Shown here: positions 58,079 through 58,262 of the stretch, piece by piece
Layout: every line of letters begins with the position of its first letter
Position numbering within the stretch: the first letter of the stretch is position 1
Source of the DNA: a virus
Virus record (IMG/VR): IMGVR_UViG_3300028025_000090
DNA: 64,000 nucleotides
Strand: one strand, 5' to 3'
Notes under the pieces: generated by a model
What the model saw: the letters and a program-made list of their open reading frames with translations, nothing else
Told to the model about the DNA's origin: nothing
Database searches by the model: none
Made by a program: the position numbers and the translations under genes

Positions 58079-58262
58079 TTCGCTTCGGCAGTATCAATAC
58101 ATGACCAGAACCTCCCTCTACTATTCACTTAGCATGGAGACTGGTGGGATCGAGAAATAGAGCCTTCGGGTGCGCGGAAAAAGTCAGTAATGACAGGTAG
58201 TAATTCTATCCTCCCTAAAACTCGGATACTGAAAAGGTAGGCGCAGACCGTTCCGAAGCGAA
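58079..58262 (+). ncRNA. Highly structured 184-nt RNA of unknown class
   Basis: 10-bp closing helix 58079-88/58253-62, 7-bp helix 58089-95/58225-31, C(UUCG)G and GUAA tetraloops, potential pseudoknot 58171-75/58241-45. Confidence 0.75.

Follow-up and report, generated by a model that had tools for sequence, protein, structure and literature searches.

A compact non-coding RNA of T4-like aquatic phages that may be closed into a circle by an RNA ligase

We describe a compact non-coding RNA of about 190 nt encoded by an uncultured phage, identified in a 64,000-nt stretch of DNA (IMG/VR record IMGVR_UViG_3300028025_000090, hereafter the window). The reading that we favour, at somewhat better than even confidence, is that the element is a stand-alone phage gene whose RNA product has its two ends joined into a circle sealed by a ligase. 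A wider proposal, which we hold more tentatively and rate a little short of even, is that a clade of T4-like aquatic phages makes a circular non-coding RNA that is clamped by its terminal helix P1, sealed by an enzyme of the Rnl1 type, perhaps able to self-assemble through the loop of hairpin P8, and used as a decoy or scaffold. The phage itself encodes a T4-type large terminase, a tail sheath and a baseplate wedge protein, which identify it as an uncultured T4-like myovirus. Its terminase has at best 38% identity to any of 50,697 phage records.

The element spans 184 nt (58079-58262, plus strand) and its first base lies 6 nt past a TAA stop codon (58070-58072), as a preliminary description made from the sequence alone had stated. 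That description also found the element GC-rich relative to AT-rich surroundings. The measured G+C content is 0.46-0.48, against 0.30-0.35 on the 3′ side and about 0.41-0.43 on the 5′ side. The RNA gene product covers slightly more (58076-58270, plus strand), as judged from the RNA contigs X15, X16 and X17, and corresponds to the one match of our covariance model in the window. All its parts are on the plus strand. Helix P1 pairs TTCGCTTCGG (58079-58088) with CCGAAGCGAA (58253-58262) over 10 bp, and over 12-13 bp in divergent lineages. A T-run behind its 3′ strand (58267-58270) is the likely 3′ end of the transcript and forms one flank of the joint described below. P1 stacks on P2 (CAGTATC, 58089-58095, with GATACTG, 58225-58231), where U-A changes to C-G and C-G to A-U. 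The P3 domain (58104-58145) has an outer helix (ACCAG, 58104-58108, with CTGGT, 58141-58145), an inner helix (CTCC/GGAG, 58112-58115 with 58136-58139) and a 3-bp tip (58121-58123 with 58130-58132), and each of the three shows compensatory changes. It overlaps a near-invariant core, GACTGGYGGGATCGAGAMATRGAGCCTTCGGGTG (58139-58172), whose columns are unchanged across 24 versions and which contains the 5′ strand of P4 and the UUCG hairpin P5. P4 (CGAG/CTCG, 58151-58154 with 58221-58224) and P5 (GCC-TTCG-GGT, 58162-58164 with 58169-58171) do not vary among close versions and covary only in the two most distant ones, L133 and L128, which have CGGG/CCCG and CCC/GGG. Hairpin P6 (GTCA-GTAA-TGAC, 58183-58194) has compensatory changes in three of its four pairs, and its loop, usually GUAA, is GCAA in two versions, so that the GNRA type is kept. 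P7 (58195-58211) is a variable hairpin. P8 (GGU/ACC, 58236-58249) has a stem that covaries from G-C to U-A and a loop of 8-9 nt that carries GCGCA.

Folding energy by itself is weak evidence for this structure. The minimum free energy of −52.4 kcal/mol corresponds to z = −1.49 on the plus strand, where 17 of 200 shuffled sequences fold equally well, and the minus strand gives z = −1.17. Since the thermodynamics are unremarkable, the case for an RNA rests on the comparison between phages. In an alignment of the 26 distinct homologues, fitted to the covariance model, 18 of the 48 pairs are compensatory, against 6.1 ± 1.7 in shuffled alignments. None of 500 shuffles reaches 18, slid controls give 0-3 compensatory pairs, 98.3% of the cells are paired, and none of the 11 helices is without a compensatory pair. 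An alignment of 24 versions made with MAFFT and scored on a hand-drawn structure has 12 compensatory pairs out of 52 (4.5 ± 1.4 when shuffled, 0 of 500 shuffles reaching 12, and 0-3 in slid controls), and RNAalifold run on the same alignment yields 11. In P1 the changes affect four pairs, and the outer 4 bp are wholly swapped in L133 and L128 (ACAU/AUGU). RNAalifold proposed an alternative pairing of the core (GGG.UC/GA.GCC together with CGGGU/ACUCG). We rejected it because the two distant versions covary with CGAG/CTCG and GCC/GGU, which favours the core pairing drawn in the preliminary description. G-U pairs are frequent on the plus strand (for example, 58091/58229 in P2 is G-U in 18 of 26 versions). 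Read on the other strand, such pairs would turn into A-C mismatches, which marks the plus strand as the RNA.

These comparisons bear out the proposal that the plus strand encodes a genuine non-coding RNA, compact and built of several helices. The perfect 10-bp closing helix stacked on a 7-bp one, the ACCAG/CTGGT, CGAG/CTCG, GCC-TTCG-GGT and GTCA-GTAA-TGAC helices, and the UUCG and GNRA loops were all recovered at their original positions, each helix with compensatory changes. Covariation, whose absence the preliminary description had held to speak against a function, is present. The AGGTAG/CTATCCT pairing fared less well: a stem-loop occurs at P7 in every version, but its registers vary and only two pairs can be aligned (G-C, G-U, A-U), so that what is conserved of the helix as drawn is two G-C pairs.

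The pseudoknot suggested between TGCGC (58171-58175) and GCGCA (58241-58245) was partly retained. The two words are complementary, the 3′ one lying in the loop of P8, and in the main clade 93.7% of the pseudoknot cells are paired, with four different C-to-U changes tolerated as G-U pairs. On the other hand, there is one mismatch in L005, and the 5′ half is missing in L077, L133 and L128. A pseudoknot restricted to the main clade, and not extending to the whole family, is plausible from these patterns. The P8 loop (58239-58246 in the window) contains a self-complementary word in 13 of its 14 versions (UGCGCA, CGUACG or GCGC). In its purine-flanked 9-nt form it alternates between two 6-nt palindromes, UGCGCA and CGUACG; by chance, 6% of random 9-mers contain a 6-nt palindrome. 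The loop resembles a kissing-loop dimerisation site, and we regard intermolecular pairing as a lead rather than a result.

We then compared the element with known RNA families and with other genomes. None of the 4227 models of Rfam 15, which include riboswitches, ribozymes, 6S, tmRNA, RNase P, SRP, Y RNA, pRNA, group I and II introns, GOLLD and ROOL, reached its gathering threshold in the element, and the matches in the window were three tRNA hits. At E ≤ 10, the region 57850-58400 gave one chance match of 9.5 bits, outside the element. The preliminary description had been unable to assign a known class and had noted that an Rfam match would remove the novelty; the class remains unassigned even at this permissive threshold. 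With blastn, the element had no similarity to any of the 50,697 phage records, where the neighbouring tRNAs alone matched. A pattern search of 185,579 prokaryote genomes returned zero matches, and hence no clue to the host. The element is a new RNA family, and its apparent topology and probable biogenesis are new for phages.

Homologues were found in environmental sequences. Starting from the downstream protein, we reached three viral contigs, and the element is present in two of them. An exact-word search filtered with nhmmer identified 33 true loci in IMG/VR and 18 in JGI metagenomes. Many exact 16-mer matches were discarded as chance after nhmmer, and 16 of 34 metagenome pattern matches, nearly all in high-GC DNA, were also due to chance. 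Searching with covariance model R1 beside distant relatives of the Rnl1-like ligase described below revealed two more, far more divergent versions (145 and 124 bits). This makes 26 distinct sequences in total, and the mean column identity among the first 24 is 90%. Between lineages the RNA is 80-86% identical and the ligase proteins only 47-61%, which suggests that the RNA is under stronger constraint than the enzyme gene. With the covariance model, three complete records, one near-complete record and the window each gave a single copy, and in all, 50 phage or metagenome DNA contigs encode the RNA once each, with normal flanks. When R1 was run next to close relatives of the ligase and on five fragmentary records, it found no copy; this carries no information, since the RNA lies some 12-17 kb away in that lineage or the record is partial. 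At least half of the element's words are present in DNA runs labelled subsurface, marine, estuary, freshwater and lake.

The sequence context points to an independent transcription unit. The promoter-like motif AAAACTAGAATACAAT (57865-57880, plus strand) heads a unit made of a small ORF and the RNA. Allowing up to 3 mismatches, there are 25 such sites in the window, all on the plus strand, where 2.5 are expected. They span 15195-62893 and lie upstream of many small genes. The motif is probably the promoter of one temporal class of phage genes. In L040, L128 and L133 it lies 11-12 nt ahead of P1 with no ORF in between, and in the L033 lineage an unrelated acidic ORF separates the motif from the RNA. 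All versions have a run of 4-6 T starting 0-7 nt past P1. If P1 and this run are read as a terminator, the 'loop' has 164 nt, and a simple scan for loops of 3-8 nt gives no terminator. The downstream genes vary between phages and often have their own promoter motif. Given the promoter motif, the T-run past P1 and the differing downstream genes, the element is a self-standing RNA gene, bounded by a promoter and by P1 with its T-run, which resemble a terminator.

In most lineages the RNA would be co-transcribed with an upstream gene for a small basic protein of 56 aa (57902-58072, plus strand). Differences between versions of this ORF are distributed over the three codon positions as 336/278/920, as expected for coding sequence. 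The protein matches no Pfam family and has just 11 unnamed clusters among 5.8 billion proteins, confined to this phage group. It was found in all four genomes checked, in two of them 13-18 kb from the RNA, and it may be a partner of the RNA, though not an obligate neighbour. A constant gene order accompanies the stand-alone RNA (L128, 6396-6848, and also before the RNA in L040 and L033): ligase, small ORF, glutaredoxin-like CxxC protein, four-cysteine zinc-ribbon protein ending in FFEVCCVW, promoter and RNA.

Metatranscriptomes provide the evidence for a circle. Runs X15, X16 and X17 come from three studies (two freshwater from 2025, one riverine from 2018), and each yielded one contig of 217-222 nt that contains the element only (58075/58076 to 58260/58270) in circularly permuted form, i.e. 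with a head-to-tail 3′-5′ joint. In X16, position 58259 is joined to 58076 with AT between them. In X17, 58260 is joined to 58076 with GAATTAAT between, which is the 3′ flank of the L007-type version. In X15, the last letters of P1 precede 58075 and its first letters follow 58270, and the first and last 30 nt of the contig are an identical word. The three contigs differ in sequence and thus represent three strains. The unit length is 186-192 nt. In the window's version it is 191 nt, from 58076 to 58266 or equally from 58080 to 58270, the exact position of the joint being ambiguous since both ends lie in T-runs. The joint reads ...GCGAATTAATTTTTCGC... and falls in the T-runs at the foot of P1, with no filler beyond the genome-encoded letters. 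When the sequence is folded as a circle, the structure is retained and P1 is capped by a 7-nt loop, UUAAUUU. The longest ORF starting with ATG on the plus strand of the circle has 19 aa and there is no endless frame, and translation of the circle was thus discarded. The same runs had no cover over the flanks or over the two tRNA genes, a gap to which we give no weight. The joint is known from assembled contigs rather than raw reads, which means that its depth is not given, and none of these contigs comes from a lineage with a promoter dedicated to the RNA. On these contigs, the RNA quite probably occurs as a covalently closed circle.

The alternatives differ in which of these observations they can accommodate. 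A stable linear RNA with its ends held together by P1 would require the contigs to be artefacts of cDNA synthesis, library ligation or assembly, and we consider this unlikely. Linear RNAs leave dead ends in an assembly graph that rare chimeric reads may bridge, and such reads arise from end-to-end template switching by the reverse transcriptase or from the RNA-ligase step in library preparation. Bridging is easy in a de Bruijn graph when a small RNA is abundant, contigs are what the joint is known from, and the DNA control run X1 gave no contig for comparison. However, the joint is clean and sits at the same place in three variants from three studies. In addition, the longest word shared by the two ends of the gene has 7 nt, so that a graph with k = 31 cannot close by a repeat and needs reads containing the joint. 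The mean word depth of X16 is only 7, which implies that the words of the joint are about as common as the rest, though this reasoning is approximate. A circle could also be produced by the RNA itself, if a novel ribozyme cut the 5′ end or both ends and perhaps ligated them, as the hairpin ribozyme does in satellite RNAs. The invariant 34-nt core, the GNRA loop and the possible pseudoknot would fit such an activity, and in the window's lineage the 5′ end must be excised from an mRNA. Nevertheless, self-processing is quite improbable: no ribozyme family matches at E ≤ 10, the joint is U-rich, variable in sequence and at the far end of P1, away from the core, and in three lineages the promoter would have the transcript begin a few nt before P1, making a cut unnecessary there. 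The ribozyme-like character suggested in the preliminary description is not matched by any known ribozyme motif.

Two further explanations do away with an independent RNA altogether. The element could act in cis, as a riboswitch or attenuator gating read-through or as a 3′ stabiliser of the small-ORF mRNA. Its position 6 nt past a stop codon and its terminator-like end speak for this possibility, and the preliminary description had thought of a riboswitch. We find it highly improbable, because three lineages have no upstream ORF and another has an unrelated one, the genes that follow vary and often carry a promoter themselves, and the RNA contigs contain the element alone. For a riboswitch in particular, which is unlikely, it is also awkward that the element follows an ORF in most lineages. 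The perfect 10-bp inverted ends and the palindromic words could instead reflect a DNA-level feature, either a mobile element with 10-bp terminal inverted repeats or a cluster of protein-binding palindromes. This is barely credible given the single copy per genome at a syntenic place, the G-U pairs restricted to the plus strand, the many compensatory changes and the absence from 185,579 prokaryote genomes.

Known classes of circular or circle-associated RNAs were also considered and rejected. A circle left by a group I intron does not fit, as RF00028 gives no match, the upstream ORF already ends in a stop codon ahead of the element, and what borders the element is a promoter on one side and a T-run on the other. 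We discarded a viroid-like or ribozyme-made circle since a DNA template exists and there is no match to hammerhead, hairpin, twister, HDV, pistol or hatchet ribozymes. Ro60 (TROVE) has no match in four genomes holding the RNA, which excludes a phage-encoded Ro60 partner. A Y RNA (YrlA/YrlB) was rejected for the same lack of TROVE, together with the lack of RF02553 and RF00019 matches and of any tRNA-like part in the element according to ARAGORN.

We return to the favoured reading, a circle sealed by a ligase, for which the phage encodes a candidate enzyme. The gene at 44374-45465 (plus strand) encodes an Rnl1-like RNA ligase (phrog_562, E = 2.9e-35) with motifs KLDG, EGVV and LKKIK; it has motifs I (KxDG), IV and V and the profile of the T4 Rnl1 family. 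PF09511 matches the homologues in three other records, whereas the window's copy falls below the threshold of this model and matches no Pfam family and no PDB sequence. The PF09511 and PF09414 searches were also empty in the complete genome G001 (the record of L018, 133,831 bp with terminal repeats). A protein search showed that G001 encodes a ligase 83% identical to that of the window, which indicates that the Pfam Rnl1 model misses this subgroup. An Rnl1-like gene is present in five of five genomes, i.e. the window and all four others holding the RNA. In four divergent lineages (L040, L033, L128 and L133) the two genes share a strand, with the ligase 0.8-2.4 kb upstream; two of these lineages came to light solely because the neighbourhood of ligase genes was inspected. 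The linkage hints at a connection but is not specific, given that T4-like phages commonly encode Rnl1-like ligases and that the region abounds in RNA-repair genes. The enzyme clearly serves other purposes too, and one 88-kb fragment encodes a ligase 84% identical to it yet shows no copy of the RNA. A second RNA ligase, with PF09414 and an OB domain, is followed by a histidine phosphatase (55105-57085, plus strand, by Pfam; the ligase gene alone is 55105-56505) and lies 1-3 kb upstream of the RNA. This neighbourhood is syntenic in 9 loci. Outside the window's lineage the second ligase is not next to the RNA, and three of the four other genomes (G001, G005 and G007) lack it. The PDB sequence search with this ligase was empty, the neighbouring presumed repair genes have no Pfam match, and RtcB was not found in four genomes holding the RNA.

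Maturation of the RNA could proceed as follows. A phage promoter would start the transcript, together with the small basic-protein gene in the window and for the RNA alone in three other lineages. The transcript would end in the U-run behind the G+C-rich P1, and termination there would leave a 3′-OH. The 5′ end would lie at most about 5 nt ahead of P1. In the window's lineage it would be cut from the mRNA, with RNase E or RNase P as candidates, and the A|UUUUU site at this end presumably suits the preference of RNase E. In the stand-alone lineages the 5′ end may come from the start of the transcript after removal of pyrophosphate, since a primary-transcript 5′ end would need to be changed to a monophosphate before ligation. 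P1 would then bring the two ends side by side, and their joining would give a closed circle with P1 capped by UUAAUUU. By analogy with T4, the phage's own Rnl1-type ligase would be the most likely sealing enzyme: T4 Rnl1 joins a 3′-OH to a 5′-phosphate at a break in the 7-nt anticodon loop of a tRNA. A protein ligase fits better than a ribozyme active site because the sequence around the joint is U-rich, varies between versions and is far from the core.

The invariant 34-nt core, the conserved GNRA loop and the very slow evolution suggest a globular RNA that binds something, and the core would bind a protein or a small ligand. A closed circle would resist exonucleases. We suggest, with low confidence, that the RNA withstands exonucleases, lasts long and acts on a host or phage factor as a decoy, sponge or scaffold, perhaps as a dimer formed via P8.

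The nearest known mechanism would be found in archaea, where non-coding RNAs including C/D-box sRNAs are circularised by the ATP-dependent RNA ligase Rnl3 (PMC9014305, PMC2577357). In both cases, a structured non-coding RNA encoded in DNA has adjacent ends joined by a protein ligase, as we propose here, and not by splicing or a ribozyme. The differences are that our system belongs to a bacterial virus, that its enzyme is on the Rnl1-like and not the Rnl3 branch, and that the RNAs are unrelated, the archaeal ones being known guides. The nearest enzyme logic would be that of T4 Rnl1 and Pnkp, which repair tRNA nicked in the anticodon loop (PMC3400036, PMC2610378). The break lies in a 7-nt loop atop a stem, and the predicted joint of the phage RNA has this geometry. 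However, the T4 substrate is a damaged host tRNA, whereas here the natural ends of a phage RNA would be joined, which would amount to maturation and not repair. Viroid-like and retrozyme RNA circles (PMC7761336; bioRxiv 10.1101/2022.07.19.500677) are similarly small, highly base-paired and seen as permuted contigs in metatranscriptomes. Those circles are copied from RNA to RNA, and most contain a hammerhead, twister or hairpin ribozyme. The phage RNA, by contrast, is encoded by a single-copy gene in a dsDNA phage, where it has a promoter and a terminator-like end, and it matches no ribozyme. The pRNA of phi29 (RF00044, about 170 nt) is also phage-encoded and has a helix closing its 5′ and 3′ ends, a multi-way junction and complementary loops through which molecules could pair with one another. 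Yet the element has no Rfam match, its phage is a T4-like myovirus with a T4-type terminase, and pRNA is linear, and a packaging role like that of pRNA is unlikely. Finally, DucS, a non-coding RNA of Bacillus altitudinis, is reported to have linear and circular forms (PMC10504365). DucS resembles the phage RNA as a non-coding RNA of the bacterial world with a circular form, and differs in being chromosomal and in having an unrelated sequence and fold.

We found no report of a DNA bacteriophage encoding a ligase-made circular RNA in full-text searches, which cover few subscription journals. Circles made by protein ligases are known from archaea, and those made by ribozymes or splicing from eukaryotes and viroids. 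If our proposal is correct, this would be the first gene for a ligase-made circular RNA in a DNA virus of bacteria. For Rnl1-type ligases of phages, whose only explanation to date is tRNA repair, it would mean a second natural job. The RNA would be a natural counterpart of engineered RNAs whose ends are held by a stem and closed by a ligase, and it would add a new, strongly constrained RNA fold.

Some observations concern the surroundings of the RNA gene. In the close relative L001, only the 3′ part of a tRNA-Cys gene is left (2027-2056), right after a 65-aa ORF. This remnant suggests that a tRNA-Ser/Cys pair upstream of the RNA unit has been deleted in some strains. Elsewhere in the window, 40347-40448 has an Rfam tRNA match of 36 bits with a 48-nt insertion at the anticodon/variable region and is not called by ARAGORN. 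ARAGORN calls a tRNA-Val(AAC) at 61195-61267, where the Rfam tRNA model stays below threshold. Two adjacent paralogous genes downstream of the RNA (59609-59971 and 59991-60311) have near-identical C-terminal ends (...TEIQKAIDLLTKEGL.VDGKILKN), each behind a promoter motif, and both contain repeated 'D/E-SNG' units.
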